Shown: piece by piece, positions 3,149-26,655 of the stretch | Position numbering within the stretch: position 1 is the stretch's first letter | Layout of the letters: each line of letters opens with the position of its first letter | Source: Polynucleobacter necessarius | GTDB lineage: Bacteria > Pseudomonadota > Gammaproteobacteria > Burkholderiales > Burkholderiaceae | DNA: 32,000 nt | Assembly (NCBI RefSeq): GCF_900095195.1 | Contig: NZ_LT606950.1 | Span: forward strand, 1,027,207-1,059,206 | Reading direction: 5' to 3' | Made by a program: the position numbers and the translations under genes | Notes under the pieces: generated by a model | What the model saw: the letters and a program-made list of their open reading frames with translations, nothing else | Told to the model about the DNA's origin: nothing | Database searches by the model: none

Positions 3149-3169
3149 AAAATCATGGTTTAAAGATCG

Positions 3170-4138
3170 TTATAAGAATTGCTTTGCCAAGATAGTGTAC
3201 AGCGGAATGCCTAGAATGATGTTGAATGGAAAGGTAATCCCGAGTGACATGCCAATATACAGCGCAGGATTGACTTCTGGTAAAGCGTGACGCAAGACAG
3301 CGGGTACCGCAATATAGGATGCGCTCGCCGCAAGAACCATCAATAGAATGGTGTTACCAAGGGGTAGATTAATGACACTGCATAGAAGTAGTGCGAGTAA
3401 GGCGTGCGACAGGGGCGCCGTAATTGCGTAAAGCAATGTGACTGGCGGTTTGCCTTTGAGACCTTTTAGATTCCTGGCTGCCATGAGACCCATATCAAGT
3501 AAGAAGAAGGCTAACATTCCTTTAAATAAATCGATCGAGAATGGCGCCATGAGTTTTTGACCGGCATCTCCGCTGACTAGTGCTACCACCATCGATCCCA
3601 GAAGAAGTAGTTGGGCGCCGTCCGTAAAGGACTCATGCAATATGGTTGAGATGCTGGTAGCTTCGTGCTGGGTATGCGTTTTTTTGGATTGGTAGGCTCG
3701 TGCTTTATTTGCCAAAACGATAGCCAAGATAATAGCGGGCGATTCCATTAACGCCATGGCTGCAGCCATATGTCCGCCGTAGTGAATATCAAATTGATCT
3801 AAGTATTGTGTGGCGGTAATAAAAGTAACTGCGCTGACTGAACCATAAGTCGCGGCGATGGCAGCGGCATCAAATGCATTTAACTTTCTTCTGAGGAGAA
3901 GGTAGCCAATCCAAGGAATGATGACTGCTAAAAAGATAGCCAGCCCCAAGGAGAATCCGATTTCACTTGTAAAGCCGGATTTGTGTAATGCAAATCCACC
4001 CTTGAGTCCAATGGCCATTAATAAGTAAAGTGATAAAAAGCGAGAAATCTGAGGCGGAATTTCCAGATTAGATTTAACGCTGCCAGCGAATACTCCGAAG
4101 ACAAAAAAGAGGATGGCGGGATCTAAAAAATTTGTCAT
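3170..4138 (-). CDS. Sodium-dependent bicarbonate transport family permease (SbtA-like, Sbt_1/DUF897)
   Basis: Intact 322-aa polytopic membrane ORF. The N-terminus MTNFLDPAILFFVFGVFAGSVKSNLEIPPQISRFLSLYLLMAIGLKGGFAL is characteristic of this permease family. Its start overlaps the upstream regulator stop (ATGA at 4135-4138). Confidence 0.75.
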   Translation of the reverse strand: MTNFLDPAILFFVFGVFAGSVKSNLEIPPQISRFLSLYLLMAIGLKGGFALHKSGFTSEIGFSLGLAIFLAVIIPWIGYLLLRRKLNAFDAAAIAATYGSVSAVTFITATQYLDQFDIHYGGHMAAAMALMESPAIILAIVLANKARAYQSKKTHTQHEATSISTILHESFTDGAQLLLLGSMVVALVSGDAGQKLMAPFSIDLFKGMLAFFLLDMGLMAARNLKGLKGKPPVTLLYAITAPLSHALLALLLCSVINLPLGNTILLMVLAASASYIAVPAVLRHALPEVNPALYIGMSLGITFPFNIILGIPLYTILAKQFL

Positions 4139-5043
4139 GATGCTGCTTTAGATTTATTACTTGATTCCTGCTTGATGATTGCTTGCACTAAGGGGTGCTC
4201 AATTTTCTTTTCTGAGCGGATAGCGTAGAAGTATTCGTAAATATCTTCACAACCTCCAAGCAGTTCAATTCCATAGGTTTCTTTGAGATCTTTCTCAATC
4301 AATTTTCCCGCTGGAAAGGCACCCAGGCCGCTTGCAGCAAAGGTTTTGAGAAGGGCGCTATCCCCAAATTCTCCAACGATGTTTGGTGTAATGCCATGTT
4401 TGCTAAACCACTGATCAATTAAGAGGCGAACCGTGGAGTGGGATGTGGGTAGCAAAATCGGTAACTCTTCCAAACACTCTGGAAGAGGCTTTTTCGCCTC
4501 TTGCAAAAAGGGCTTTGGGCAAAACCATGCCATAGACGATCGGGTTAACTCCTCACTGTAGACGTTGAGATTTTTATTATTTGGCGCTGGTCTGTCTGCC
4601 AGCACAACGTCTAAATGATGTAGCGCTAAACCAGCGAGTAGGTCCTCAAATTCTCCTTCGTGAACAACCAACTGAACATCCTGATGTTTGAGAACGGGGT
4701 CTAGAGGTTGTTTGGTAATGAGCTTTGGGAGGCCATTTGAAACGCCAACCGTGATTTTGGTCCGCGGGGATTTGGCAGCATCTCGAACGGCCTCAGGAAG
4801 TTTCTCGCCAATCGAAAACACTTGATCAGCAATTTCCCGTGCCGCGTAGCCAGACCCCGTCAGCGCAATACCTCGACCAGCGGGTTTGAATAGCATGTAG
4901 CCGAGTGATTTCTCGAGTTCATGGACTTGGGCGCTAATGGTTTGAATGGCCATATCGAGGCGTTCAGCCGCCTTGGACATATTGCCCTCTTTTGCCACCA
5001 CCCAAAAATAATACAGATGCCGATAGTTATAGGAGTTCGTCAT
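4135..5043 (-). CDS. nhaR: LysR-family transcriptional regulator, NhaR-like
   Basis: Intact 302 aa. It shows NhaR hallmarks: NYRHLYYFWVVAKEG (E. coli NhaR has NYNHLYYFW) and GEFGDSALLKTFAASG (E. coli has GEFDDAALMKAFGA). The N-terminal wHTH is followed by a LysR substrate-binding domain. Confidence 0.8.
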   Translation of the reverse strand: MTNSYNYRHLYYFWVVAKEGNMSKAAERLDMAIQTISAQVHELEKSLGYMLFKPAGRGIALTGSGYAAREIADQVFSIGEKLPEAVRDAAKSPRTKITVGVSNGLPKLITKQPLDPVLKHQDVQLVVHEGEFEDLLAGLALHHLDVVLADRPAPNNKNLNVYSEELTRSSMAWFCPKPFLQEAKKPLPECLEELPILLPTSHSTVRLLIDQWFSKHGITPNIVGEFGDSALLKTFAASGLGAFPAGKLIEKDLKETYGIELLGGCEDIYEYFYAIRSEKKIEHPLVQAIIKQESSNKSKAAS

Positions 5044-5168
5044 AGTCAGTTTTTTTCGAAATTATTGTCAATATATATCTGCTTTTTCTTAATTTCAAAC
5101 GCCCGCACATTAACCCCATCGGAAACCCTGGCATTTAGGTGCCATACAACATGTAAAAGGTTGATCAA

Positions 5169-5628
5169 TTGGAACTTTTTAGCCCTGAATTCTTTTTGGC
5201 ACTACTGGCAATCATTATGATTGATTTGGTTTTGGCTGGAGATAACGCCATCGTGATTGCGATGGCAGCCCGAAATTTACCTTCTCATTTGCAGAAAAAA
5301 GCAATTGTCTGGGGAGCGGTAGGCGCTATCGCAGTACGTAGCGCAATGACTTTAGCAGTGGTGTACTTACCCAAGATCCCGGGCTTGAATTCTCAAGCTG
5401 GTTGAGCGTTATCCATCGATCACCTATTTAGGTGCTGGTGTATTGGCTTGGACGGCAGCAGAGATGATGACTTCAGAGCCCATGGTGCAAGAGTGGCAAG
5501 TATTCAACAATCCCGTATTTGAATACGCATCCCAGGCCCTAGTCATTATTGGTGTTCTTAGTGGTGGATTTGTAAGAAGTAGGTTGGCTCTTGAAGAGAA
5601 GATTGCGCCAGCTGTAAGCGCTGCCTGA
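5169..5628 (+). pseudogene. TerC-family (YjbE-type) integral membrane protein, fragmented and shortened
   Basis: The N-terminal piece (TTG start) is ELFSPEFFLALLAIIMIDLVLAGDNAIVIAMAARNLP...KAIVWGAVGAIAVRSAMT, a typical TerC motif, ending at a stop at 5403-5405. A C-terminal piece sits in another frame (5443-5628). The total length is well below that of intact family members. Confidence 0.7.
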
Positions 5629-5659
5629 ACAGCAGTCACCTAACTTAGGAGGTAATGTA

Positions 5660-6169
5660 ATGAATAAAGTTCTGATTCCTGTAGATGGTTCAAGCAATGC
5701 CTTGCTAGCTCTGAAACATGCAGTCAATGTTTATGGCAAGGACGCTCATACCGAAATTCATATTTGCAATGTGCAGCCAAAGCTGTACTTCCATATCGGA
5801 AAATATTTCAGCAAGAAAGATATTTATGAATGGCAAGCAGAGCGCGCAAAATGTGCTGCCCAGTCTGCTGTAGAGTTTTTAGAAAGGGCTGGTGTAAATT
5901 TCTCATTTACTTACGTTAGCGGCGATAAGGGAGAGGCCCTGCGAGACGAAGCAGAGCGACTCGGATGCGGTCGGATTGTGATTGGATTCGCAAAGAAAAA
6001 TACTCTTAGCAGATTGTTTGAGAACTCCACCACAGCCAAGTTGTTGGAAATCAGCAATATCCCAGTAGAGGTGGTAACTGGTAAATCCATTCCAACTTTA
6101 GAGCGTTGGGGTACTCCAGCCCTGGGTGCTGGCGCTGCTACAGCACTGGTAGCTGCCGTCATTGATTAA
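5660..6169 (+). CDS. Universal stress protein (UspA family)
   Basis: Intact 169 aa with SD-like taggagg 6-8 nt upstream. MNKVLIPVDGSSNALLALKHA... and ...GCGRIVIGFAKKNTLSRLFENSTTAKLLEISNIPVEVV fit the Usp fold. The Ala/Gly-rich C-terminal tail is unusual. Confidence 0.8.
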   Translation: MNKVLIPVDGSSNALLALKHAVNVYGKDAHTEIHICNVQPKLYFHIGKYFSKKDIYEWQAERAKCAAQSAVEFLERAGVNFSFTYVSGDKGEALRDEAERLGCGRIVIGFAKKNTLSRLFENSTTAKLLEISNIPVEVVTGKSIPTLERWGTPALGAGAATALVAAVID

Positions 6170-6201
6170 CCCACCGTCACTTTTTTGCGGTACTTCCCTT
6201 G

Positions 6202-6226
6202 GCCCTCCTCGCGAGGGCATTTTTTA
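6202..6226 (+). terminator. Rho-independent terminator downstream of uspA
   Basis: GCCCTC-ctcgc-GAGGGC hairpin (6202-6218) followed by a TTTTTT run (about 6220-6225). Confidence 0.6.
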
Positions 6227-6333
6227 TCAATAATTCAGAAAAAAACAGAAATATAGTCAATTAAATTCTGCTTTATTAAGAATATGTAGATTTCTATATT
6301 GAATCTGTAGTGTTTTCATAAGGAGATATAAAT

Positions 6334-6549
6334 GTGGATGTGATCTTGGATTCAAAAGAGTTGCCTGAGCCTGAGTTAAAAGCGTTTACTGAGAATCGAG
6401 TGAAATGCTCTCCAAAGCGTTTATTTTGGCTTGTGCGAAAAATTAAGATTCAATATGCAGCAGTGCCCCATTCAAAAACCCAGTGCAATCAAAGCTGCTC
6501 GATTGAATTGCAGGCCTTTGATCATCAGCTGATTGAAGTCTCAGCATGA
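6334..6549 (+). CDS. Hypothetical small protein (71 aa, GTG start), orphan
   Basis: AGGAG at 6321-6325 lies 8 nt upstream of GTG 6334. The stop overlaps an ATG (ATGA at 6547-6550) that opens a further 40-aa basic ORF (6547-6669). I recognise no family. The ORF lies in an AT-rich spacer. Confidence 0.25.
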   Translation: MDVILDSKELPEPELKAFTENRVKCSPKRLFWLVRKIKIQYAAVPHSKTQCNQSCSIELQAFDHQLIEVSA

Positions 6550-6923: not shown

Positions 6924-7380
6924 ATGCGGCACCGAAGTGCATTCCACGGGACATTTTCCGTTTGGTTTTTGCTAGCCTTTATTGGTAGTTTTGGCCCATC
7001 CATGGCCCATGGCCAGGCCGCTTCACAAGATAAAAAATCGTATTCAATTAACGACCTCATTCAGGTTGCTCTAGAATCCAGCCCTCAAGTATTGGCGGCT
7101 CGAGACCAAGCAAAAGCTATCAGAGGTCAACTATCTACTGCTCGAGCAATACCCAATCCAGGTTTGAAGTGGCTATTGGACAGCAGCGTTCAGTAACTGG
7201 ACCATTGACGGTTGGAAATGTCTCATCTTGGTCTGTTACTCAACCTTTAGATATGCCATATACCAACCCGAGAGTGATTGCAGGAGGCACCATGCCTTCT
7301 AGCGCAATCTCGCTAGGGTCGATGTATGGCCGATTAGCTGATGACATTGGACGATTGTACGAGTATGAAACGCTTTTTGC
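6924..7380 (+). pseudogene. TolC/CzcC-family outer membrane efflux protein, N-terminal fragment only
   Basis: A signal peptide MRHRSAFHGTFSVWFLLAFIGSFGPSMAHG is followed by SYSINDLIQVALESSPQVLAARDQAKAIRGQLSTARAIPNP, the typical OMF N-terminus. There is a frameshift near 7170-7196. Similarity runs to ...PRVIAGG...RLYEYETLFAQ and ends about where the convergent queG stop lies (7381-7383). About 150 of an expected 420 aa or so remain. Confidence 0.7.
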
Positions 7381-8481
7381 TCAAACCGCACAACCAAGTG
7401 CCCACGTAATATGCTCTGCCACCAATGAATCTGCGCTCGGCAAACTCTCCTGCAACGCTTTGCGCATGAGCTCTTTGTCTTGATCTGGAACTTTAGTACT
7501 GGCCAACGCATTTCCCATGGCAACTGCAAGATTACGACGCCAACGGTGATAACCAATTCGACGAATCGCACTGCCCTCATGACGCTGTTCAAACTCCGCT
7601 TCAGTCCATGACCATAAATGCAACAGGCTCGCTTGACCGAGACCGTGACGTTGCGCAAAATCCGGCAAATCGGTTCGCTTGGCAAATTTATTCCATGGAC
7701 AAATGAGCTGACAGTCATCGCATCCATAAATACGATTACCCATGGCCGCTCGAAACTCTGTCGGAATAATGTCAGGATTTTCAATTGTTAGATAGGAGAT
7801 GCAGCGCCGCGCATCCAATTGGTATGGGGCTGTAATGGCTTTGGTTGGACACACATCAATGCAGGATTGACAGGTACCGCAATGCTCTTCCTGTGGTGCA
7901 TCGATGGGTAGCGGGATGTCTACCAAAATCTCGCCCAAGAAAAATGTTGAACCTGATTCTCGATTGATTAATAAGGTGTGCCTACCTCGCCAACCCAATC
8001 CTGCCTTTCGCGCGAGTTCAACTTCCATTAATGGGGCAGAGTCTGTAAATACACGATAACCAAAAGGTCCGATTTTTTTCTCAATCTCGGTAGCAAACGC
8101 TTGCATGCGCTGACGAAGCACTTTGTGATAATCGCGCCCTCGCGCATACAGTGATATCACCGCTTGCTCAGGCTCCTCAAGGCGCTGCCATTCGGAATCA
8201 AAGTTAGCATCTGGCGGCAAGTAATTCATCATGACGGATATAACGCGTCCTGATCCAGGAACAAGTAATTGCGGGTTAGACCGCAAATCTGCATGACGCT
8301 GCATGTATTCCATATGTCCATGTCGCCCCTCGGATAACCATGCCTGCAATCGCTCGCTCGCCTGACCAAGCTGCGTATCAGCAATCCGTAGACCGTCAAA
8401 TCCAAATTCCCTAGCTTTTTCAGAGAGCCAAGCGCGTAGCTGGGCCTCATTAACAGTGGTGGAATGGTTTGATAAAGGCAC
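7381..8481 (-). CDS. queG: Epoxyqueuosine reductase (tRNA epoxyqueuosine(34) reductase)
   Basis: Intact 366 aa. It has two ferredoxin-type Cys clusters (CGTCQSCIDVCP ... CDDCQLICPWN) and a C-terminal HEAT-like tail, with overall QueG colinearity. Confidence 0.9.
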   Translation of the reverse strand: MPLSNHSTTVNEAQLRAWLSEKAREFGFDGLRIADTQLGQASERLQAWLSEGRHGHMEYMQRHADLRSNPQLLVPGSGRVISVMMNYLPPDANFDSEWQRLEEPEQAVISLYARGRDYHKVLRQRMQAFATEIEKKIGPFGYRVFTDSAPLMEVELARKAGLGWRGRHTLLINRESGSTFFLGEILVDIPLPIDAPQEEHCGTCQSCIDVCPTKAITAPYQLDARRCISYLTIENPDIIPTEFRAAMGNRIYGCDDCQLICPWNKFAKRTDLPDFAQRHGLGQASLLHLWSWTEAEFEQRHEGSAIRRIGYHRWRRNLAVAMGNALASTKVPDQDKELMRKALQESLPSADSLVAEHITWALGCAV

Positions 8482-8523
8482 ATGAATAGAGAATGTAGCG
8501 CAATAATTGAATAAACTAGAAGA

Positions 8524-9039
8524 ATGTCCAATACACTAGCTATTTTTGAGCAACATTGTAGGCAAGAGGCAGATACCGCCAAACTTGCCAAACAACTTGC
8601 CGGCAGGATTTCTGGATTTTTAGAGCGTCACCCTCAGGGGCACCTTAATATCTCGCTCATTGGTAATTTGGGGGCAGGTAAAACTACATTTGCCCGCTAT
8701 TTGATTCAGGCCATGGGGCATGAGGGGAAAGTCAAAAGTCCAACGTACACCCTGTGCGAACCCTACTCTATTCAAATGCGATCGAGCTCGGTCACAGCTC
8801 ACCATTTTGATCTTTACCGAATGCGAGACCCGCTCGAATGGCAGGAGGCCGGTTTTGCAGAATATTTTGATGTGCCTGGCTTTTGTTTAATTGAATGGCC
8901 AGAAAAAGCGGAGGGCACTCTTCCGTCTTTTGATCTTCAAATTGAGTTGCTTGCTGGTGCCAATGAAAATGAACGCACGATCACGATCACCGGATTACTC
9001 CGTGATGGGGTAACCGTTTTAAAGAGTCTGAACCAATAA
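8524..9039 (+). CDS. tsaE: tRNA threonylcarbamoyladenosine (t6A) biosynthesis ATPase TsaE
   Basis: Intact 171 aa. It has the P-loop GNLGAGKTTFARYL, ...SPTYTL... and HFDLYR motifs typical of TsaE/YjeE. It is divergent from queG and directly abuts amiC (TAA ATG). Confidence 0.9.
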   Translation: MSNTLAIFEQHCRQEADTAKLAKQLAGRISGFLERHPQGHLNISLIGNLGAGKTTFARYLIQAMGHEGKVKSPTYTLCEPYSIQMRSSSVTAHHFDLYRMRDPLEWQEAGFAEYFDVPGFCLIEWPEKAEGTLPSFDLQIELLAGANENERTITITGLLRDGVTVLKSLNQ

Positions 9040-10374
9040 ATGATCAGCAACAATAAGACCAATCTTGCGAGAAGACGCAATCTTAAGACCTCTGCCAAGC
9101 TGATTAGTTTTGCCCTACTACTGACTGAGGTAGAGATTGCTTGGGGCGCCAAAATTTTAGGCGTACGTGTCTGGCCATCCGAGGATTACACCCGCATCAC
9201 TCTGGAATCCGATACGCCACTTCCGATCAGTCAACAGATATTGACTAACCCAGATCGCTTAGTGGTGGACGTACAATGCTTGGAACAAAATTCCACCCTC
9301 AAAGATTTGGTAGCCAAAGTAAAACCGAACGATCCCTACATCTCTCAAGTGCGCGTGGGTCAATTTCAACCCGGGGTAGTCCGTTTGGTCTTTGACTTAA
9401 AAGAACCAATCAAGCCACAACTTTTTACACTCGATCCCGCTGGCGAATACAACTACCGCATGGTGTTCGATTTATATCCAACCACACCGCCTGACCCCTT
9501 AATGGAATTAGTCAAGAGTAGCGCTCGCAAAGAAGCGGCTTTAGCAAAGCCAAATGAAGAGGTGGATTTAATTGCTCAATTTGCTACTAAAAAAGATATT
9601 CCTAAGCCACCGGTGGCTCAAGCCATTCCGGAAACAAAAGAAGTTCCGGCACCAGCAAAATACAAGCGCCTGATTACGATTGCAATCGATCCTGGTCATG
9701 GCGGTGAGGACCCTGGCGCCATAGGCTCACTGGGATCACGTGAGAAGCACGTTGTCCTCTCGATTGCCAAAAGACTGAAAGATAAGATTGAGAACGAGGC
9801 TTATATGCGCCCGTTTTTAACCAGAGACGGCGATTATTTTGTGCCACTGCATGTTCGGGTACAAAAAGCGCGGCGCGTAGAATCGGATTTGTTTGTCTCC
9901 ATCCATGCAGATGCATTTATTCAGCCGCATGCGAAAGGTGCCTCAGTTTTTGCTCTATCGCAAATGGGCGCTAGTAGCTCGATGGCGCGGTGGATGGCCA
10001 ATAAGGAAAATGCATCGGATTTAATTGGCGGCATCAACATCAAGAACCAAGATCGACAAGTCGCTAACCTATTGCTGGATATGTCTACTACCGCCCAGAT
10101 TAAAAATTCGCTAGTGGCTGGTAATTCAGTCCTCAAGCAAATCGGAGGATTTGCGCCCTTACATAAAGGGAAGGTTGAGCAGGCAAGTTTTGCTGTTTTA
10201 AAGGCCCCCGATATTCCATCCATCCTTGTGGAGACAGCTTTTATTAGCAACCCCCAAGAAGAGGCTAAACTGAATGATGATGGCTACCAAGACCGAATCG
10301 CCGATGCTATTTTGAAGGGGATTAAGGATTATTTTTCCAAAAATCCGCCCGTGGCCCGCAGAATGAATTCATAA
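9040..10374 (+). CDS. amiC: N-acetylmuramoyl-L-alanine amidase (AmiC-type, AMIN domain plus Amidase_3)
   Basis: Intact 444 aa. It has a twin-arginine-like leader (ARRRNLKTSAKL), an AMIN domain (ILGVRVWPSEDYTRITLESD), a Pro-rich linker and a catalytic domain (ITIAIDPGHGGEDPGAIG ... SIHADAF ... LVETAFISNPQEE). Confidence 0.9.
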   Translation: MISNNKTNLARRRNLKTSAKLISFALLLTEVEIAWGAKILGVRVWPSEDYTRITLESDTPLPISQQILTNPDRLVVDVQCLEQNSTLKDLVAKVKPNDPYISQVRVGQFQPGVVRLVFDLKEPIKPQLFTLDPAGEYNYRMVFDLYPTTPPDPLMELVKSSARKEAALAKPNEEVDLIAQFATKKDIPKPPVAQAIPETKEVPAPAKYKRLITIAIDPGHGGEDPGAIGSLGSREKHVVLSIAKRLKDKIENEAYMRPFLTRDGDYFVPLHVRVQKARRVESDLFVSIHADAFIQPHAKGASVFALSQMGASSSMARWMANKENASDLIGGINIKNQDRQVANLLLDMSTTAQIKNSLVAGNSVLKQIGGFAPLHKGKVEQASFAVLKAPDIPSILVETAFISNPQEEAKLNDDGYQDRIADAILKGIKDYFSKNPPVARRMNS

Positions 10375-10439
10375 ACAAGTCGCAACTACAAGGACTTATG
10401 GGCAGCCCCCATAGACTGAGAGATTGCCCACCAAGTTCT

Positions 10440-10448
10440 TGCTATAAT
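10440..10448 (+). promoter_or_regulatory. Extended -10 promoter element for tRNA-Lys
   Basis: TGcTATAAT at 10440-10448 lies 13 nt upstream of the mature tRNA 5' end. I see no good -35 at 17-bp spacing, which is compatible with an extended -10 promoter. Confidence 0.45.
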
Positions 10449-10461
10449 CTATGGCTTAACT

Positions 10462-10537
10462 GGGTCGGTAGCTCAGTCGGTAGAGCAGCGGACTTTTAAT
10501 CCGTTGGTCGCGAGTTCGAATCTCGCCCGACCCACCA
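10462..10537 (+). tRNA. tRNA-Lys (anticodon UUU), CCA encoded
   Basis: The manual cloverleaf is: acceptor GGGTCGG/CCGACCC, D arm GCTC-AGTCGGT-AGAGC, anticodon stem GCGGA/TCCGT with loop CTTTTAA, variable TGGTC, T arm GCGAG-TTCGAAT-CTCGC, then A-CCA. Length 76 nt. Confidence 0.95.
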
Positions 10538-10545
10538 GTTATACA

Positions 10546-10575
10546 AAAGCCACCCTTAAGGTGGCTTTTTCTTTT
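10546..10575. terminator. Bidirectional rho-independent terminator (tRNA-Lys / convergent hydrolase remnant)
   Basis: AAAGCCACC-cttaa-GGTGGCTTT hairpin flanked by an A-run upstream and TTTTTCTTTTT downstream. Confidence 0.7.
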
Positions 10576-11580
10576 TCAATGAGGTACTTGAAAAGTATCG
10601 AGTAAACCATTTTTTCTTTAGCCAAGCTTCAATCAAGTCAGCTATCAGAATATTATTTCGGTCCATCATCATCAGCATATGGGAATTACCTTTAATTCCA
10701 ACGTCGGGCAAATTAATCACATCCACACTATCACCAGCCTCAATATATTTTTGATTCAAGTCAAGTTGGGTTTTGCGAATATTAGGCCAACGAGAATCTT
10801 GATCTATGTAGTCACCATATATTGTCAATATAGGTGTATTTTTTAGAGCAGCAGCCTTAGCTGGATCACCAAAACCAGCAGGTTCAACCAAAATTAGCGC
10901 CTTTACCTTATCCGGTCTAGCTTGCGCAACCTTCTGTCCAAATTGACCAGTCTGACTATGCACCAAAACCACACAAGGGCAAACTCGATCAACGAGCTCA
11001 GTACAGTATATGCAGCAATCGTTGCAGCGTCTGTAGTAGTCCATCGAGGCACAACCTGCTTCATAAAGTTCTGGTAACCTTCCGCAGGAAACAAGCTTCC
11101 AGGAAATTGGGTGCGCTTAGAGGCATCATTACTCCAATTGCCGGCCCCCATGCGAAATCGGCCCCAAGGATTCTCAACTGTTAAAAATTGTGGCTCAGAC
11201 GGCCAAATATCAGGGGAAGCTCAGCCTAAGCGTCCACGCTCAACCGCATCAGATACATAAGTTTTCCACCCTTTACGAATGAAGTAGTTCTGCCAACCCT
11301 CTCTACCATCAGGCGTGGTTTCATAAGTAACGCCAGTCAAGCCACCAGCATGCCAAAGCATAATAGGCAATTTTCCCTTAACGTCCCTCGGAATAAAGTA
11401 CTGCACATACATTTGCTCAACTAAATAATTACCATTGGGATCAATTTTTGCAGGGGCACTTCCAGGACTAAAAACAACTTCTTTAATCGGGCGACCTGAG
11501 ATCTCCACTAAGCAACCTCCAACATGAAAGGATCCCATATCCACCACATTGAGTGGCGGCAACTTAGATTGCGCGATTAG
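10556..11580 (-). pseudogene. Alpha/beta-fold hydrolase (esterase-like), frameshifted and lacking its own start
   Basis: Three minus-strand frames read colinearly. First: ...VDMGSFHVGGCLVEISGRPIKE...KLPIMLWHAGGLTGVTYETTPDGREGWQNYFIRKGWKTYVSDAVERGR. Second: MGAGNWSNDASKRTQFPG...FMKQVVPRW. Third: VVLVHSQTGQFG (nucleophile-elbow-like) ...KALILVEPAGFG...GNSHMLMMMDRNN. The N-terminus is fused in frame to efflux-gene remnants. An A-run indel near 10605-10612 shifts the C-terminus. Confidence 0.7.
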
Positions 11581-12340
11581 CAGCTTGGTCGGCCAGCTGG
11601 CTAGCACTTTTGCTTTTAAGCATGCCAACTGGGATTGTGTTAATTCTGTTGAAGTAATCTTGGCTAATACATCACCCTGCTTCACGACCTGACCGCCCTT
11701 AAAATCCCAAATAGGAATACTTATCTGCAATCCATACAAACGATCGGTAAAGTTCGGGTCATTGTATTGAGAAACTTTAAAAGCCAATTTCGGTAAACGA
11801 GAATTTTTCTCAAAACTTAATTTTGACTCACTCGCCTCAACATCAGCTTTTGCTTTTTGCAATTCAGGGCTTTGTGCTTGTAATTCACCCAATAAGATAT
11901 TTAATAGTGGTAAGTTTTCAACTTTAGGTTGCTCATGCACAACGCTAAAATTATCTGGCAGTGCATGTCCAACCACCTGACGCAATCCGTTGCGAGCCTG
12001 CTCTACTCTCAGCTTTCCAGATTCCGAGGCAATTTGAGCATTCAGAAATTCGGTTTGAGCACGAATCAGTTCAAACCGCGCAGTCTCACCAACGTCATAA
12101 CGTAATTGCATACGATCCCGAATCTGTTTTGTAAGGTTAAGATCCTCATCGGCAGCTTTAGACTCAGCTTCGCATCGCATGAGCTCATAAAACGCTGCTG
12201 CACTTTAGAAATAACCTCGATTTCAAAAGCAATGCGAGTTGTTTCTGCCGAACGGTAATTGGCCTCGGCAGCGTTTACTCGTGGGAAACGGGTATATATT
12301 AACCCGCTGTTCTTCTTGCTCACATTTACCGAAGTGAAGC
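11581..12340 (-). pseudogene. Remnants of an RND-type efflux operon: TolC/CzcC-family outer membrane factor (middle part) fused to a short HlyD/MFP adaptor fragment
   Basis: The OMF-like coiled-coil repeats are ...PRVNAAEANYRSAETTRIAFEIEVISKVQQRF / YELMRCEAESKAADEDLNLTKQIRDRMQLRYDVGETARFELIRAQTEFLNA...LPLLNILLGELQAQSPELQKAKADVEASESKLSFEKNSRLPKLAF...GLQISIPIWDF. There is a 1-nt frameshift in a T run near 12185-12190. This is followed directly by GGQVVKQGDVLAKITSTELTQSQL, a lipoyl-like motif of membrane fusion proteins. Both ends of the OMF and nearly all of the MFP are missing. Confidence 0.65.
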
Positions 12341-18465: not shown

Positions 18466-19540
18466 TTATTTTTCGCCAACAGTCATCGAACAAATCAAAA
18501 TTGAACCCGTTTCTTTGGTTCCACGAATTAATGTATCGCTACTAATTAGCTCGATATCAAGAAGCATATCGCGCAAGTTGCCTGCAATAGTCACCTCCTC
18601 AACAGGATATTGAATTTCACCATTCTCAACCCAGTAGCCAAATGCACCCCGCGAGTAATCACTAGTCACATAATTTACGCCCTGACACATCGACGCGAGA
18701 ACCAATAATCCAGTGCCCATTTGTTTTGGTAGCGCAGGCAATCCACCCTTTGGTGTTTTTTTGCTCTGCAGTGTTAAATGATGGGAGCCACCCGCGTTGC
18801 CAGTAGTCTTCATCCCCAATTTGCGAGCAGAATACGTCGATAAAAAGTAGCCCTGCAATATTCCCTTATCCACTACAGTACGGGCCTGTGTTTTGACACC
18901 CTCCTCATCGAATGGCGCGTTACCCGTCATACCCACCTAACAAGCCGGCCGCCGGAGGCGCCTCAAATATAACAGGGCAACGTCGCGTAGAAAGAGATCT
19001 TGCTTTTAAGCGCGATAGGGCACGCTGGGCTGCATATATTCCGATGGCCGCTGGGTCAGCCAATTCGGCTGGCATGCGCGAACTGGAATACCAATCATCA
19101 CGTTGCATGTGCAATTTTTTTCCACCTTCACTGGCAATAGGCGCACAAGAAATGTAGTGACGCGAAAATGGATACCCGCCAATAAAGCCGTGCGAGGTGC
19201 CCATCATGAAATGGGCATGGTGAGCAGATACGGAAGCGCCATCGCTATTTTGAATTTGCTTGCTGACTGCAAAGGCAGCGGCGTCTACTGTCGCCTTAAG
19301 GGATGCTTTAGAAAAATCTCTTGTGCTGGCATTGCCACGTCGATGCCCTAAAAATACAGTCACCCCCACTTGCTTATCCAGACTTTGCTCAATCGTCTCG
19401 ACCTCGCCCTTGCGAACCGTGACGGAGAGGCCCTGCCCCTCTGAGACTTCCGCAACCGCATCTGTGGCACCCCGTCTTTTGGCCTCTTTGAGCATGAAAT
19501 CGATGATTTCTTGAAACTGACTACATGAATATGTAAACAT
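18466..19540 (-). pseudogene. pmbA: PmbA (TldE) metalloprotease, internally deleted and frameshifted
   Basis: Compared with the roughly 450-aa E. coli PmbA, the N-terminus (...GLSVTVRKGEVETIEQS...GVTVFLGHRRGNAS) jumps from ...KATVDAA to ...IQNSDGASVS, missing about 50 aa. After ...VIFEAPPAAGLLG, a further 45 aa or so are missing and the frame changes (about 18920-18940). The C-terminus is conserved (FDEEGVKTQ...LSTYSARKLGMKTTGNAGG...DYSRGAFGYWVENGEIQYPVEEVTIAGNL). Confidence 0.85.
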
Positions 19541-19566
19541 GACCTAATAATAGCTAGAATAGAAAC

Positions 19567-20191
19567 ATGAAGCATACTGAAGCCCTAAAACGCACCTCCC
19601 CAAATGAGATCAAAATTGGTTTAATCTCGATTTCCGATCGGGCCAGTAAAAGCGTTTATCAAGATGAGGGGATCCCAGCGCTCCAAACCTGGCTTATGAA
19701 AGCCATCAAAAATCCCTGCGCCTTTCATGAGCGCTTAATTGCCGATGAGCTTGAAACGATTACTGAATCCATAGTTGAGCTGGTAGATGACATGGGCTGT
19801 GATCTCGTCCTCACCACCGGGGGCACGGGGCCTTCAAGACGCGATGTGACGCCCGAAACAACCCTAGAGGCTGGCACTCGTGAAATGCCTGGTTTTGGCG
19901 AACAAATGCGCCAAATCAGCCCGCATTTTGTTCCGATCGCAATATTGTCTAGGCAAATAGCTTGTGCTCCGAGAAATCGAAGATCACGCAGCGCTAGTAA
20001 TCAATTTACCCGGCCAACCTAAGGCGATTGCAGAGACGCCGGAAGGCCTAAAAGATGAAAATGGTAAATCGATTGTGCCGGGTATTTTTGCCGCAGTACC
20101 CTATTGCATCGATTTAATTGGCGGATCCTATATCGAAACCAACGAGGAAGTAATTAAAGTGTTTCGACCGAAAAGTGCTATTAAGAAATAA
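19567..20191 (+). pseudogene. mog: Molybdopterin adenylyltransferase MogA, single frameshift
   Basis: IKIGLISISDRASKSVYQDEGIPAL...LVLTTGGTGPSRRDVTPE...EMPGFGEQMRQISPHFVPIAILSRQ is near-colinear with E. coli MogA. At about 19955-19965 the frame changes, and the remainder (LREIEDHAALVINLPGQPKAI...VPYCIDLIGGSYIETN...FRPKS) is in ORF 19964-20191. Confidence 0.85.
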
Positions 20192-20221
20192 GCTATTGCA
20201 GTGCCAATCTAGCATCTAGTA

Positions 20222-20821
20222 TTACGGTAGCGGAACAATAAATGTATCGCGGTAGTACTTCAACTCTTCAATCGATTCCTCGATATCTGCCGGAGCAGTG
20301 TGCGCCTGCTTTTTGATAAAGCCTTTGACCAACTCTGGATGCCAACGTTTACATAACTCTTTTAATGTAGAAACATCTACGTTTCGATAATGAAAGTAAG
20401 CCTCTAATTTTGGCATGTACTTAGCCATAAAGCGCCGATCCTGTCCGATCGTATTCCCACACATAGGTGCAATGCCTGCCTTAATGTATTTCTTCAGGAA
20501 AGCAATACATTCCGCCTCGACATCAGCCTCGGTCATGGTGGAGGCTTTCACCTTATCGATCAACCCAGATCGTCCATGAGTCCCCTTATTCCAAGCGTCC
20601 ATCGCATCCAAAATGGCATCGTCCTGATGCACCACCCAAACCGGAGCAATTGCAATCGTATTGAGATGAGCGTCCGTCACAATCATAGCTATCTCGAGGA
20701 TGCGTTCGGTTTCTGGATTTAGTCCAGACATCTCCATATCGACCCAGATTAAATGCTCGCTGGGTGATGCCGTTTTAGAGGGTGTTGTATTACTTTGTAC
20801 AGTACTCGTTTGTTCGCTCAT
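20222..20821 (-). CDS. orn: Oligoribonuclease
   Basis: Intact 199 aa. It has the DEDDh exonuclease motifs [13 protein letters not shown], ...[11 protein letters not shown]... and ...[11 protein letters not shown]. Confidence 0.9.
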
Positions 20822-20836
20822 AACTACAATGATCTC

Positions 20837-22087
20837 ATGACATTCACAATTATTTTCCTAATTGCCTTTATTAGCAGTTTTGGCCTGCGCCACTGGCTAT
20901 CCCTGCGCCAAATTCGGCATGTTGCCCAGCATCGAGATACGGTTCCAGCAGAATTTGCTAACAAAGTAACCTTAACCGAACACCAAAAGGCTGCCGACTA
21001 TACGATTGCTAAATTGCGTTTAGGTATCCCCGAAAATGGGGTCAGCGCCATCATTTTAATTGCCTTCACTTTGCTTGGCGGTTTACAGATTCTGAATCTA
21101 TTTCTTCTGCAATTATTCGGTGAGGGTGTTGCCCAACAAATAGCGCTATTAGTATCCGCCGTACTCATCTCCGGCGCCATTGATCTACCATTCTCTTGGT
21201 ACAAGCAATTCCACCTTGAGGAACGCTTTGGCTTTAATCGTATGAGTAAAAAGCTATTTTTCAGTGACATGATGAAAGGGATTGCCGTTGGTGGAGCAAT
21301 TGGTATCCCCCTTCTCTGGGTGATCCTGGCCTTGATGCTCAAAGCAGGTGACCTTTGGTGGATCTGGGCTTGGGCGGTGCTATCTTCTTTCAGCTTGTTG
21401 ATGCAGTGGATTTTCCCAACATTCATTGCCTCTTTGTTTAATAAGTTCGAAGCCTTAGAAGAGGGACCACTCAAAACGCAGATTGAAGCACTACTTGCAC
21501 GCTGTGATTTTGCCAGCCAAGGGTTATTCGTCATGGATGGCAGTAAACGTAGTGCTCACGGCAATGCATTTTTTGCCGGCATGGGCAAAGCCAAGCGCAT
21601 TGTATTTTTTGACACATTAATTGAAAAGCTCAATCCCGGTGAAGTTGAGGCTGTCCTTGCGCACGAACTTGGACACTTCAAGTGCAACCATATTCGCAAG
21701 CGCCTGCTGGTGTCATTCGCGTTGAGTTTTGGCATGTTTGCCCTACTCGGATGGGTTAGCACCCAATTTTGGTTCTATACCGATCTAGGTGTGATGCCGA
21801 ATTTGGACGGGTATAACGGTGGACTAGCATTGGCACTATTTATGTTGGTATCGCCTGTATTTAGCTTTTTCTTTACCCCCTTAAGTAGTCTTGCTTCTCG
21901 CAAGCATGAATATGAGGCAGATGGCTTTGCTGCACAAAAATCATCGGCACAAGATCTTATCTCTGCTCTAGTGAAGCTTTATCAAGATAACGCTTCAACA
22001 CTCACCCCGGATCCGATCTACACCGCTTTTTATAGTTCGCATCCTCCCGCGCCACTGCGAATTGCCAACTTGCAACGCCAAAGCTAG
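20837..22087 (+). CDS. M48-family zinc metallopeptidase (Ste24-like, with Peptidase_M48_N membrane domain)
   Basis: The tracked ORF starts at 20795 and overlaps orn. The likely start is ATG 20837 ([11 protein letters not shown]...). It has the [10 protein letters not shown] zinc motif, distal EYEADGFA, and multiple TM helices. Confidence 0.85.
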
Positions 22088-22369
22088 TCATCCCTCAATG
22101 GAAACGTTTCGCGTGCTACTGACCCGCCTCCTATGGAAGGCATTATCTAGCGCAACGTTTGGCATCAAACCATTGGGAAAATGAATCTCCGTGCCGGCCC
22201 ATTGATTCAAGTAAGCACCCCTGCTAAGCAACACATTGGTGCCGTGGGTGACCGCCTCCTCTTGGAAATGACCTCAGCAGATCAAGCCCGCATTATCGAG
22301 ATTGAACCCCGCGAAAATATTTTGTATCGTTCCGATGCGTTTAAAAGCAATATTATTGAATCGAATGTA

Positions 22370-22381
22370 GATCAAACTTGG
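22370..22381. repeat. Left arm of the imperfect inverted repeat bounding the rsgA inversion
   Basis: GATCAAACTTGG. The reverse complement of the right arm (22567-22579) is GATCAAATTTTGG. Confidence 0.75.
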
Positions 22382-22566
22382 CGAAACCTCGCTCACTGCG
22401 TAACCCATGCGAGCATAGGGTTCGATCATTTTACAAGCATGCTCTAAGTTGTCTTTGAGGGCACACTTATTGAGCAGAATGTGAAGGTCGATTTGGTTGA
22501 CTTCCGCTGCAACCACTGCCCTACCTAATAAGTCTGGTGAAAATGCTGGCTGCGTTGCTAGTACTA

Positions 22567-22579
22567 CCAAAATTTGATC
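22567..22579. repeat. Right arm of the imperfect inverted repeat bounding the rsgA inversion
   Basis: CCAAAATTTGATC, which is the reverse complement of GATCAAATTTTGG. It matches the left arm in 11 of 12-13 positions with one indel or mismatch. Confidence 0.75.
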
Positions 22580-23055
22580 ATGCCTCGATAGATGCTTTGC
22601 GCCCTATTTTGGCTGGAAAGGTATCTGTCTTTGTTGGTCAATCTGGCATGGGAAAATCTAGCCTGCTAAATGCTTGGGTGCCAAATGCCGCTGCACTGAC
22701 CCAAGAATATTCAGTGCGTCTGGATACGGGAAAACATACAACAACTGCGTGCCGCTATTTTGAATTACCAGAATCATGGGGACGTGGTGAAACAGGTAAA
22801 TTGGGTGCCCTCATTGACTCCCCGGATTCCAAGAATTTGGTTTGGCGCGTATGTCGGTCAGCGAGTTGCAGCATGCATTCCGAGAATTTAAGGATTTGCT
22901 CGGTAAATGTCGCTTTCATAATTGCGCGCATTTATCTGAACCCGATTGCGCAGTCCGCGATGCGGGCGAGCGAAATGAAATAGCGCCAGAAAGACTGGCG
23001 CTATTTAGACAACTGCGTTCTGATTCGAAAACAGCGGATATTCAAATACAGGGAA

Positions 23056-24015
23056 TTAGCCAAGCCAAAGAGCGATGGTCAGCATTAGCAACAAAGCCAT
23101 CCAAGCGATAACTAGGCGCCACACCAACCCTACTGCAGAACGCATCGTACGCTCAGTAGGCTCAAGACCCACCTCATACACCAAAGGTTCACCAGCCTCT
23201 GCCATATGTAAGGCCTCATCGCTATCAGGCTCGCTCAACGGCTCACCTAAACGTACACCTAGCGCACCACTGCCGGCAGCCAAAATGACCGCAGACAATG
23301 AGTCGGCCCATTTTTGCGTGAGATAACGCCATGCATATACAGCTCCCTCAAAATTACCCACAATGGCAAAGCCCATGGCGGTAATGCGTGATGGAATCCA
23401 ATCCAGTACGTAGAAGAAATGACGAGCCGCTTCACTCAAGTTGTAGTCACCGCGCTCAGACCAACGCTGAGCTGCAATATCCGCCAAACGATAGAGCGCG
23501 ACACCAGCAGGACCCATAGGCATCATGAACCAGAACAGGACACCAAATACATGGCGGTGCGAACCAATAATCGCACGCTCAAGCGCTAATGAAATCACTT
23601 CAGTCTCCGACAGATTGGTGGTATCCAACTCTGGGCCATACCATTCACCAAGTGCGGCACGGGCCGCAGACAGAACATGCGCTTCAATCGCTTCATGAAC
23701 CAAGGTAAACGAGTGACTAAATTGGCGAAAGCCAAAAAACAAATACGCAATCACTATGTTCCACAAGAACCCTAGAATGGGGTAAGTCACCATACAAGTG
23801 ACATACACGATGAATACCAAAAGGGTTGGTAATATAAATGCCACCAAGCAAGCCATTCGCGCACCGACTGGACTTGCACCCTCTTTAGTCTTGCCACCAA
23901 ATTCCGCGGCGACCCAATCCAACCAGCGGGCACTTAAACGTGCGATCAAATGGTTTGAGGTTACTGGGCGATATTGCTCAGCAATGAGGGCGAAGAGAAT
24001 AGAGAAGAAAGTCAT
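23056..24015 (-). CDS. CobD/CbiB-family (AmpE-like) integral membrane protein
   Basis: Intact 319 aa. MTFFSILFALIAEQYRP... and ...IIGSHRHVFGVLFWFMMPMGPAGVALYRLA...DWIPSRITA match the Burkholderiales CobD/CbiB-family protein usually found next to the CoA pyrophosphatase gene. Its start overlaps the upstream stop (ATGA at 24012-24015). Confidence 0.7.
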   Translation of the reverse strand: MTFFSILFALIAEQYRPVTSNHLIARLSARWLDWVAAEFGGKTKEGASPVGARMACLVAFILPTLLVFIVYVTCMVTYPILGFLWNIVIAYLFFGFRQFSHSFTLVHEAIEAHVLSAARAALGEWYGPELDTTNLSETEVISLALERAIIGSHRHVFGVLFWFMMPMGPAGVALYRLADIAAQRWSERGDYNLSEAARHFFYVLDWIPSRITAMGFAIVGNFEGAVYAWRYLTQKWADSLSAVILAAGSGALGVRLGEPLSEPDSDEALHMAEAGEPLVYEVGLEPTERTMRSAVGLVWRLVIAWMALLLMLTIALWLG

Positions 24016-24755
24016 ACTTTTAATAAATGATAAAGGTTACGCAACATACCCGCTGTAGCACCCCAAATAAAGCGGTTTTCATAAGGCATGGAATAAAAAC
24101 GGCAACCACCTTGTTCGCTTTGCCACAGTCTAACCTGATGGTTAGCGGGATCCAACAAAAAATGGAGTGGCACTTCAAATACATCCGCCACCTCAAAGGC
24201 ATCCAAGGCATATTCTGCCTGAGGCTGCACCAATCCGACAACTGGCGTAACGCTATAACCGGAAACGGTGAGGTATTCAGGGAGATTGCCAATAATCTCA
24301 ACCAGCTTAGGGTCCAAACCAACTTCCTCCCAACTTTCCCGCAATGCAGTATCTTCTGGAGACAAATCTTCTGGATCCATTCGGCCACCCGGAAAACTAA
24401 TCTGCCCAGCATGGTCCCGCAAATGGTTGGTTCGCTGCGTCAGCAATACTGAAAGCCCAGCCTGTTTTAATAACAACGGTATCAGCACTGCTGCACGCGT
24501 CACCTTTCCGGCGGCCTGACGCTTGGCAATAATATCCGTCGCAATCACGTGACGATTCTCATCCGTAATCTCGGGCTCCCACGGAGGTGGGTTTTGTAAG
24601 CGTTCTTTTAATGCCTGTGGATCTAAAAACTTTGGGGATACCTTTTGATCATGAGTGCAAACCTGATGCACTGGAATCGCTTGTGCATCAAACCCAGGAG
24701 GCGCAGCAACATCGAGCGCGTCTTCTCCTGGCTTCGGGGTCTTATGCATAGTCAT
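24012..24755 (-). CDS. Nudix hydrolase, CoA pyrophosphatase (NudL-like)
   Basis: Intact 247 aa. It has the Nudix box GQISFPGGRMDPEDLSPEDTALRESWEEVGL and an upstream AAVLIPL...LLTQR motif typical of CoA pyrophosphatases. Confidence 0.85.
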   Translation of the reverse strand: MTMHKTPKPGEDALDVAAPPGFDAQAIPVHQVCTHDQKVSPKFLDPQALKERLQNPPPWEPEITDENRHVIATDIIAKRQAAGKVTRAAVLIPLLLKQAGLSVLLTQRTNHLRDHAGQISFPGGRMDPEDLSPEDTALRESWEEVGLDPKLVEIIGNLPEYLTVSGYSVTPVVGLVQPQAEYALDAFEVADVFEVPLHFLLDPANHQVRLWQSEQGGCRFYSMPYENRFIWGATAGMLRNLYHLLKV

Positions 24756-24770
24756 ATTCTAAGGCAGCAA

Positions 24771-24793
24771 AAAAGGCGACCGAGGCCGCCTTT
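24771..24793 (-). terminator. Rho-independent terminator after rplS
   Basis: On the minus strand: AAAGGCGGCC-tc-GGTCGCCTTTTTT, a GC-rich hairpin plus a T run, 19 nt downstream of the rplS stop. Confidence 0.65.
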
Positions 24794-24811
24794 GATGTGA
24801 GCAGCAAATAA

Positions 24812-25204
24812 TTACTCTGCAGCTGTAGTAGCCACTTTGTTACGTGCTTGCAACTTTTCTTTAATACGTGCTGACTTACCAGAACGATCGCGCAAGTAGT
24901 ACAACTTAGCACGACGCACATCACCGCGACGCTTCACTCCAACGCTAGCAATCAATGGTGAGTGGGTCTGAAAAGTACGCTCAACGCCTTCGCCAGAAGA
25001 AATCTTACGCACGATAAAGCTGGAATTGAGTCCGCGATTACGCTTAGCAATCACAACGCCTTCAAAGGCTTGGGTACGCTTACGGGTACCTTCAACAACG
25101 TTTACGCTAACAATTACTGTGTCACCAGGCGCAAAGCTTGGCAATGTTTTGTTAGCACTTAAGCGAGCAATTTCTTCTTGCTCAATTTTTGCAATTAAAT
25201 TCAT
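24812..25204 (-). CDS. rplS: 50S ribosomal protein L19
   Basis: [12 protein letters not shown]...[46 protein letters not shown]... The start is taken at ATG 25204 (AAGGA lies 8 nt upstream) rather than the tracked 25222. Confidence 0.95.
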
Positions 25205-25315
25205 TTTTAAATCCTTAAACATCGTATTAGCGTTTTATCCCGTGGCATCAATCCACGGACCTAACAGAGGATGCAGTTAAAACTCTTTCACTAAACCAAA
25301 AACAAAACGACTTAT

Positions 25316-26062
25316 TCACAAAGAGCGAAGAAATTGTTCATCTTCTCGGGTTAGCAACCCATTGGCCCTGGCCGATTCAATTAAATCTGGCCGTAACCTT
25401 AGCGTCAGCTCTAAAGACTTCTGCCGACGCCAATCTGCCATTTTAGCGTGATGTCCACCCAAAAGCACGTCCGGCACCGATAAATTTTCGTAAACCTCAG
25501 GCCTGGTGTAGTGCGGATAGTCCAAAAGACCGTTCATAAAGCTATCCTGGGCGGCCGACTCCCCATCCCCCAAAGCCCCCGGAATTAGCCTAATAACGGC
25601 ATCCATGATGGCCATAGCAGGGATTTCACCCCCTGAAAGCACGAAATCCCCAATCGATATCTGCATATCGACGTTTCGTTCGACAAAGCGTTGGTCTATT
25701 GCCTCATATCGACCACAAACAAAGGTTAAATTTCCCAATTTCAGGATATCCGAAGCTATTTTTTGGGAAAAACGCTCACCTTGGGGGGATAACAAACAAA
25801 CGGGGCCAGACTCAATTCCAGCATCCCGATGGGCGGCCTTAATGCCTGCAACAGTATCGTCAAGGGGCTTTGCCATCATCACCATGCCAGGACCGCCGCC
25901 ATAAGCACGATCATCCACCGTCTTGCGCGAATCCCGACAAAAATCTCGCGGATTCCACAATTGAACACTGGCCAAAGATTGCTCGCAAGCGCGACCCGTC
26001 ACACCCCATTGGGTGAGTGCAGAGAACATCTCTGGAAAAAGGGTGACGACGTCAAAGCGCAT
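25316..26062 (-). CDS. trmD: tRNA (guanine37-N1)-methyltransferase
   Basis: Intact 248 aa. MRFDVVTLFPEMF..., ...DDRAYGGGPGMVM..., ...CGRYEAIDQRF... and SIGDFVLSGGE are classic TrmD motifs. Confidence 0.95.
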   Translation of the reverse strand: MRFDVVTLFPEMFSALTQWGVTGRACEQSLASVQLWNPRDFCRDSRKTVDDRAYGGGPGMVMMAKPLDDTVAGIKAAHRDAGIESGPVCLLSPQGERFSQKIASDILKLGNLTFVCGRYEAIDQRFVERNVDMQISIGDFVLSGGEIPAMAIMDAVIRLIPGALGDGESAAQDSFMNGLLDYPHYTRPEVYENLSVPDVLLGGHHAKMADWRRQKSLELTLRLRPDLIESARANGLLTREDEQFLRSL

Positions 26063-26088: not shown

Positions 26089-26655
26089 TTATTGCCAATC
26101 CAATTGCCAATCAAGCGTAATCGTTTTATTAGGTAAGTCAACGCCCTGCACAACCTCTTTTACTAAGGGCACTAAATACTGAATATTTTTTATAGTGGCG
26201 TTACCGATCGCAATCACACCATGCGCGCCATTTTCAGTCACGTCCAACACTTCACCGAGAGTTTCGCCTTGCAGATTGACTGCTTGACAGCCTATAAGAT
26301 CGACCCAGTAATAGGCATCTTTTTCTACGCTCGGAAAAACGTCTCGCGCCATCAAAATACGTGCGCCTTTTAATGCTAACGCTTGATCTCGATCGGTCAC
26401 ACCTTCAAGTGCAACCACTACATTACCGCTGTGCATCTTAGCGCTCATCACTTGGTATTGCCTTAGCGATGCCTGCTCAACAGGCACAGATACACCAGCC
26501 TCCCGACGAGGGATAGGCGATAGCCAAACGGTTTTAGAAGAAAGAAGTGCTACAGGGTCTGTTGAGTGAGGCCTTACCTTCACTTGCCCTCGCAAACCTT
26601 GCGCCTCAGAGATGGCGCCAAGTTCAATTAAATCATTTAGAGACGGTGTGCTCAT
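26089..26655 (-). CDS. rimM: Ribosome maturation factor RimM
   Basis: Intact 188 aa. It has LIELGAISEAQGLRGQVKV (the RimM N-terminal beta-barrel) and a PRC-barrel C-terminus. Its position between rpsP and trmD also supports the call. Confidence 0.9.
   Translation of the reverse strand: MSTPSLNDLIELGAISEAQGLRGQVKVRPHSTDPVALLSSKTVWLSPIPRREAGVSVPVEQASLRQYQVMSAKMHSGNVVVALEGVTDRDQALALKGARILMARDVFPSVEKDAYYWVDLIGCQAVNLQGETLGEVLDVTENGAHGVIAIGNATIKNIQYLVPLVKEVVQGVDLPNKTITLDWQLDWQ

Follow-up and report, generated by a model that had tools for sequence, protein, structure and literature searches.

An Inverted Segment Between Short Inverted Repeats in the rsgA Pseudogene of a Polynucleobacter Endosymbiont

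The window analyzed here, a stretch of DNA of 32,000 nucleotides, comes from the 1,550,368-bp chromosome of a Polynucleobacter necessarius symbiont of Euplotes, a bacterium with an eroding genome. The ciliate Euplotes is the host of P. necessarius, which lives in it as an obligate endosymbiont. Nine ORFs of the window match RefSeq proteins of P. necessarius exactly. On the plus strand, from an ancestral ATG to a TAA stop (22098..23111), the window carries an rsgA pseudogene, delimited by tblastn, blastn and a MAFFT alignment with six intact orthologues. A tblastn search of the window with the intact 337-aa RsgA of a free-living Polynucleobacter (P0001) as the query returned five HSPs in three frames and on two strands: aa 10-35 at 22126-22203 (frame +1), aa 33-92 at 22196-22375 (frame +2), aa 88-156 on the minus strand at 22588-22382 (85.5% identity, E 1e-30), aa 155-242 at 22561-22824 (frame +1, 89.8% identity) and aa 242-337 at 22821-23108 (frame +3, 91.7% identity). 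The middle plus-strand fragment (aa 158-242, 22573..22824, frame +1) contains the G1 P-loop GQSGMGKS (22636-22659, plus strand), and the C-terminal fragment (aa 242-337, 22821..23111, plus strand, frame +3) contains the zinc-finger region CRFHNCAH...PDC. The G4 motif lies on the minus strand (22460..22471, alignment columns 384-395), where it is degraded to N-K-C-A (AAT AAG TGT GCC). The lesions of the gene are four 1-nt indels, an inversion and the change from NKCD to NKCA.

Once the inverted block is turned back, the rsgA remnant is collinear with the intact 337-aa orthologues (MAFFT, n=6), and the motif order of the de-inverted protein, NKCA (G4) before GQSGMGKS (G1), is that of the circularly permuted RsgA/YjeQ. 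A repaired protein, in which the suspect block was flipped and the frameshifts were closed, matches the Pfam family RsgA_GTPase (PF03193) with an E of 1.2e-44 and is 90% identical to P0001. By these matches, the locus is the remnant of a gene for the circularly permuted GTPase RsgA/YjeQ; with neither a single frame of ~337 codons nor the G4 Asp, it is not a functional gene.

The inverted block itself spans 196 bp (22377..22572, minus strand) and encodes RsgA aa 93-157 (ILVVLATQ...YAVSEVS-AK), as delimited by the HSP, its translation, Pfam and the de-inverted alignment. The initial annotation had proposed an internal inversion of ~190 bp bounded by short imperfect inverted repeats, and such an inversion, of ~190-200 bp, is indeed present. 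The strand order plus/minus/plus that had been predicted for a tblastn search was found with the intact P0001 at the protein level, and blastn agrees, giving the same order with all 12 best-scoring loci inspected among 80 orthologous loci. The minus-strand piece was also correctly placed between the OB fold and the G1 P-loop of RsgA, as seen from its HSP and from Pfam: the minus-strand peptide alone matches positions 28-88 of RsgA_GTPase (E 5.9e-8) and carries the G4 motif. Its assignment to the minus strand stands as well, while the codon positions first given for it were up to 5 nt off, LVV...SEVS running from 22570 down to 22382.

Both repeats described in the initial annotation occur at the positions given for them, with a perfect part of 7 nt. 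The left arm, GATCAAACTTGG (22370..22381, plus strand), consists of a perfect GATCAAA at 22370-22376 with an imperfect extension to 12-13 nt; its positions beyond 22376 derive, by reverse complementation, from what was once the right arm (GCC AAG TTT GAT C, encoding AKFD). The right arm, CCAAAATTTGATC (22567..22579, plus strand), holds the perfect TTTGATC at 22573-22579 and corresponds, in reverse complement, to the original left arm, GAT CAA ATT TTG G (DQIL). The inferred ancestral arms are GATCAAATTTTGG and GCCAAGTTTGATC, codons for VDQIL and AKFDH, respectively; the arms are thus codons of the conserved VDQIL and AKFD(H/P) (GCC AAR TTT GAT C), which happen to be near reverse complements of each other. 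The repeats were thus present at both breakpoints beforehand, as expected of an inversion mediated by short inverted repeats.

The reverse complement of 22377-22572 aligns from start codon to stop codon with the six intact orthologues. After de-inversion, the left junction again reads NVDQILVVLATQ and 1 nt is missing (GAGGTTTC-GCCAAG) near the right one, so that the earlier report of a flip in frame on the left and 1 nt out of frame on the right was reproduced by the de-inverted alignment. No bases were gained or lost at either junction. Since the mismatched positions of the arms moved with the inverted block, the exchange must be placed inside the 7-nt core GATCAAA/TTTGATC. When 200,000 inversions of 100-400 bp were placed at random in the de-inverted sequence by simulation, 7 nt or more of microhomology at the junctions arose with a frequency of 6e-4, and the coincidence of repeat and breakpoint is therefore not one of chance (P about 6e-4). 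Breakpoints within a repeat, microhomology above the chance level and clean junctions are together what an inversion mediated by short inverted repeats should show. About 19 other 7-mer inverted pairs occur in rsgA at similar spacing, and the pair that was used, which can be extended to 12-13 nt, is one opportunity among several.

For comparison with intact genes, 80 orthologous loci were taken as the best intact matches from a scan of GTDB species representatives, a set from which the source genome and other fragmented rsgA copies were left out. Within these best 80 loci, the rsgA reading frame is uninterrupted and collinear in every case, and in 20 of the 80, all told, free-living Polynucleobacter species these two codon sites form a perfect inverted repeat of 7 nt or more (7-11 nt), the pair in locus L035 being a perfect 10-nt GATCAAATTT. 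The substrate for the inversion is thus widespread, and its product is presumably purged by selection where rsgA is functional. One of the 80 uninterrupted genes, with 337 codons, is from another Euplotes symbiont, P. necessarius isolate PPGSP2 (LT606947; locus L068, 4001-5014), which shows that the loss of rsgA is confined to the window's lineage and is not shared by the symbionts at large. In Mollicutes, rsgA is encoded in >80% of genomes (PMC12641178). The loss of RsgA in the window's lineage is mildly notable and is not explained by the inversion.

A sister strain allows the lesions to be placed in time. We recovered its locus twice, once in an ENA metagenome assembly (ERZ27248707, contig k141_302483, 87.8 kb; L081/L085) and once in a Logan assembly (L082/L086) that belongs to a different accession; the two agree at every one of the 1,041 bp of rsgA, and 3 of 10,190 positions distinguish them. 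Over 21.9 kb of collinear sequence, the sister strain differs from the window by 1.33% substitutions (~98.7% identical). Divergence within rsgA amounts to 2.4%, as against 1.33% overall, a difference that is consistent with neutral drift.

Three of the four frameshifts in the window's rsgA are found base-for-base in the sister strain. These are a +1 nt insertion at 22192..22194 (plus strand; CCG-T-GCC, CCGTGCCGG; frame +1 to +2, alignment column 97), a 1-nt deletion in DSPGF at 22825..22827 (plus strand; CCCCGG-ATTCC; frame +1 to +3, column 732) and a 1-nt deletion in a Ser codon at 22382..22383 (minus strand; GAG GTT TC- GCC AAG; column 471). The fourth, an additional C near codon 9 (22123..22125, plus strand; ACCCGCC vs ACCGCC; column 26), is specific to the window, being present neither in the sister strain nor in any of the six orthologues. 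The deletion at 22382/22383 is the source of the 1-nt offset at the right junction. We considered this offset as a scar of the inversion and rejected it as such: in the sister strain the same deletion sits in uninterrupted sequence (GGTTTCGCCAAGTGTGATCATGC, joining the blocks termed B and C below), and the offset is therefore older than the window's inversion. The G4 Asp, which confers guanine specificity, has been lost in the window only, the sister strain retaining GAC; this is consistent with neutral decay that continued after the two strains split.

The sister strain does not have the window's 196-bp inversion. The left part of its gene reads AATGTAGATCAAATTTTGGTAGTACTAG, with the ancestral NVDQILVVL intact and in place. 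It has instead an inverted block of its own, 312 bp long, running from ancestral GCAACGCAG to GCACTGACCC (aa about 98-203, P-loop included; L081 11357-11667, equal to L082 4800-5110, and corresponding to window 22382-22705), after which the plus strand picks up again at AAGATATTCAGTG. This block takes in most of the one inverted in the window. Inverted microhomology at its breakpoints is limited to 1 nt, indicating that not every inversion in this lineage is repeat-mediated. The inverted blocks of the two strains overlap by ~175 bp.

To relate the two arrangements, rsgA was divided into five blocks (a, x, B, C, D; ancestral order 1 2 3 4 5), giving signed orders of (1 -3 -2 4 5) for the window and (1 2 -4 -3 5) for the sister strain. 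Derivation of one arrangement from the other by a single inversion was excluded by enumerating all single reversals. The two orders lie two reversals apart, and the sole two-step path between them, again by enumeration, passes through the collinear order. The two inversions are therefore independent, one in each lineage, and both postdate the split. As the three shared frameshifts occur in a strain that lacks the window's inversion, the common ancestor already had a dead rsgA, to which the inversion was added afterwards.

The sister's rsgA contains a further lesion, in which 15 nt (ATAATTGCGCGCATT, encoding HNCAH) have been replaced by 16 nt (GCTATTTCATTTCGCT; L081 11127-11142). The new 16 nt are the exact reverse complement of AGCGAAATGAAATAGC located ~45 nt downstream (donor L081 11075-11090; the two sites correspond to window positions about 22915-22930 and 22968-22983), and with the flanks the match extends to 18 nt. 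The replacement has the hallmarks of a classic template-switch mutation making a perfect hairpin, and template switching is thus a route at work in this lineage. Apart from this one, no template-switch clusters were found in the 21.9-kb alignment of window and sister strain, and a single cluster over this length does not support a generally high rate of template switching.

The surroundings of rsgA are likewise eroded: measured against a free-living relative, 3 of the 12 genes within ~4 kb on either side are pseudogenes. In addition to rsgA, they comprise one of the PmbA/TldD family (18469-19540; 448 aa in relatives), which has lost aa 255-294 and acquired a frameshift, and one with a MoCF_biosynth domain (19567-20188; 207 aa), which has a single frameshift near 19962. 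The gene rimM, which encodes a partner of RsgA, is intact in the window (26089-26655).

Window and sister strain also differ by heavy rearrangement in the window's left half, and these differences were polarized with the free-living reference L087 (CP061311). An inversion of ~5 kb (about 7290-12296) is specific to the window when compared with both the sister strain and this reference, and its breakpoints lie inside pseudogenes of azlC (aa 18 / 192) and of an outer-membrane factor (TolC/OEP). Some 45 nt of OEP sequence are seemingly present at both of its junctions (about 7255-7290 and 12250-12296); the copies are strongly diverged, too much so for a breakpoint duplication to be called with confidence. 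A block comprising DUF6671, Sbt, LysR and TerC-Usp has been rearranged in the sister strain (L085/ENA merged 19395-23518), through at least two inversion steps and with one breakpoint inside a TerC-Usp pseudogene near aa 335; across the same block (2229-6492), the window is collinear with the free-living reference. At 10574-11571, the window has a deletion that removes czcA, a P-II gene, a 271-aa gene and the greater part of czcB, all present in the free-living reference. Fragments of these genes survive in the sister strain (ENA merged 23627-25459), so that large deletions, too, differ between strains ~1.3% apart.

Within 32 kb, the window and the sister strain are thus distinguished by two micro-inversions in rsgA, one templated inverted copy and at least two kb-scale inversions, each strain having acquired one rsgA micro-inversion and at least one kb-scale inversion since the split. 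Every breakpoint that can be placed lies in a dead gene. This fits a scenario of frequent inversions that persist only in DNA free of selection.

We consider it very probable that the 196-bp inversion was a spontaneous, one-off micro-inversion in an rsgA that was already dead, and as such a by-product of genome decay. According to this scenario, three or more 1-nt frameshifts had inactivated rsgA in the common ancestor; once the strains had split, 196 bp between two short inverted repeats that were already there was flipped in the window's lineage, with the exchange occurring inside the perfect 7-nt core GATCAAA/TTTGATC and both junctions left clean; and the product was retained because, in a pseudogene, selection did not oppose it. 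The initial annotation had instead presented the inversion as a mechanism of pseudogenization. It is true that the inversion alone would destroy the GTPase domain, and that from a single genome the order of events is not directly readable, so that the frameshifts might have followed an inversion that was the primary lesion. Against this, the sister strain, in which the inversion is lacking and the left junction is still ancestral, shares three identical frameshifts, and one arrangement can be reached from the other only by way of the collinear order, which places the inversion after the split and the shared frameshifts before it; a primary role for the inversion is thus very improbable. The remark that rsgA is usually retained was fair, considering the intact frames in all of the best 80 relatives and the figure of >80% for Mollicutes genomes (PMC12641178); the comparison with orthologous loci that had been suggested, carried out here on these 80 best-matching relatives, found them intact and collinear.

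A slightly less improbable alternative, although still one to which we give little credence, is that the inversion is an artefact of the assembly or the library, for example a chimera from strand-displacement amplification. Such chimeras join inverted sequence at short complementary stretches, and the signature of the junctions, a short inverted microhomology, resembles them. The window's arrangement also rests on one public assembly: look-ups of exact proteins for the window's ORFs found no second assembly of its strain, and a metagenome scan gave no matches to the left junction. Eleven metagenome contigs that contain the frameshift motif AGCGAGGTTTCGCCAAGT were dismissed as chance hits, their blastn matches being no longer than the motif itself (two 23-nt matches) and showing no rsgA homology. 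For a balanced inversion in place, however, the consensus must contain both reciprocal junctions, and a k-mer assembler should not be misled by repeats as short as 7-13 nt. Moreover, a comparable inversion in the sister strain is reproduced in two assemblies, which belong to separate accessions and show no difference over 1,041 bp, and the window has the 5-kb lineage-specific inversion besides, making inversions a feature of these genomes. The least credible of the alternatives is a programmed, recombinase-driven invertible segment as known from phase variation, or a hotspot of repeated site-specific flipping. A hint of a hotspot might be seen in the two inversions that overlap the same ~175 bp of rsgA in strains ~1.3% apart, but the breakpoints differ at both ends between the strains and one of the inversions is essentially free of repeats. 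The kb-scale inversions elsewhere also argue against rsgA as a special hotspot, though three events of the inverted type within 1 kb are still notable. For a programmed switch, a cognate recombinase would be expected nearby; no recombinase, invertase or transposase domain was found by Pfam in window ORFs of at least 120 aa, nor did the sister contig show any recombinase or transposase family in its genes with Pfam annotation, a set that corresponds to most of the window. The repeats belong to the normal coding sequence of a housekeeping gene and occur in the intact, collinear genes of 20 of the best 80 relatives, and the segment lies within a frameshifted pseudogene, where there is nothing to regulate. 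The Pfam tables thus agree with the initial annotation, which saw no invertase or recombinase in the vicinity, and its preference for a one-off event at short homology over a programmed switch is well founded, the former being much more likely given that no recombinase was found in these ORFs and genes and that incidental codons make up the repeats.

Arms of 7-13 nt are far below the requirement of RecA-mediated homologous recombination, and the event in the window's rsgA was therefore illegitimate. For its molecular route we infer one of two possibilities: (i) a nascent replicating strand would have switched template twice at the repeat arms, as in inverted-repeat spacer inversion, or (ii) the DNA would have been broken and rejoined at the microhomology. 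Both routes give the same product. We favor template switching over breakage and rejoining, but only slightly, on account of the template-switch cluster in the sister strain's rsgA. A link between the inversion and a loss of DNA repair genes may also exist: mismatch repair has been reported lost in Polynucleobacter symbionts (PMC4285135), and without it such events would be expected to become more frequent.

The window's rsgA provides a well-resolved natural inversion between repeats of 7-13 nt, for which the ancestral state, the occurrence of the repeat in relatives and the timing of the lesions can all be recovered. It also illustrates a problem for annotation, as pipelines and pseudogene counts that consider only frameshifts and stops will misdescribe a gene of this kind, taking it for two or three pieces that lie on opposite strands and have nothing to do with each other. 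The more promising lead is the contrast with the sister strain, which suggests that illegitimate events of the inversion type are frequent in the dead DNA of symbionts free of insertion sequences. If the rest of the genome has the density seen here, lineage-specific inversions would number on the order of a hundred, accumulated without insertion sequences, and, if this is true, the strains would constitute a natural system for measuring the spectrum of illegitimate inversions in bacteria. That small inversions and template switches are a major mode of pseudogene decay in Polynucleobacter symbionts is a possibility that we raise tentatively, and at present we would lean against it.

The erosion seen in the window resembles that known from Euplotes symbionts. 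In the first P. necessarius symbiont genome, 13-18% of the coding capacity survives as pseudogenes, mobile elements have not proliferated, and the symbiont is polyploid (Boscaro et al. 2013, as reviewed in PMC4285135); rearrangements and deletions in Polynucleobacter symbionts have been ascribed to illegitimate recombination (PMC4285135). The window, similarly, has many pseudogenes (3 of 12 genes around rsgA), and no mobile elements were seen in it. We found no description of sub-kb inversions within pseudogenes, or of independent overlapping inversions in sister strains, in the literature searched; the primary Polynucleobacter papers lay outside this search, and such events may be reported there.

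With the invertible switches of bacteria (Hin/Gin/Cin, FimB/FimE, ‘invertons’), the window shares a short inverted segment flanked by inverted repeats. It differs from them in having no recombinase, in repeats that are incidental codons, in breakpoints that are not reused between strains, and in a segment that is internal to a housekeeping pseudogene and has neither a promoter nor an alternative coding function.

A closer parallel is found in inversions that arise at short inverted repeats during DNA synthesis. The model of quasipalindrome or template-switch mutagenesis has been traced to Ripley 1982, and inversion of the spacer between inverted repeats by intermolecular template switching has been described in yeast coding genes (PMC8604942); in organelle DNA, U-turn-like inversions occur at short inverted repeats (PMC4417113). 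As in inverted-repeat spacer inversion, short imperfect repeats pre-existed exactly at both of the window's breakpoints, the exchange took place in the perfect core, the junctions are clean, the segment is an exact reverse complement, and no recombinase is involved; a template-switch cluster, moreover, is present in the sister's copy of rsgA. The dimensions differ, with a spacer of 196 bp as compared to 2-5 bp in the coding-sequence cases of yeast, and a core arm of 7 nt as compared to arms of >9 bp (PMC8604942). The setting differs as well, the window's inversion lying in a pseudogene of an endosymbiont as opposed to coding genes of yeast. With these differences in mind, the event in the window's rsgA is a known kind of spontaneous rearrangement and calls for no new mechanism.
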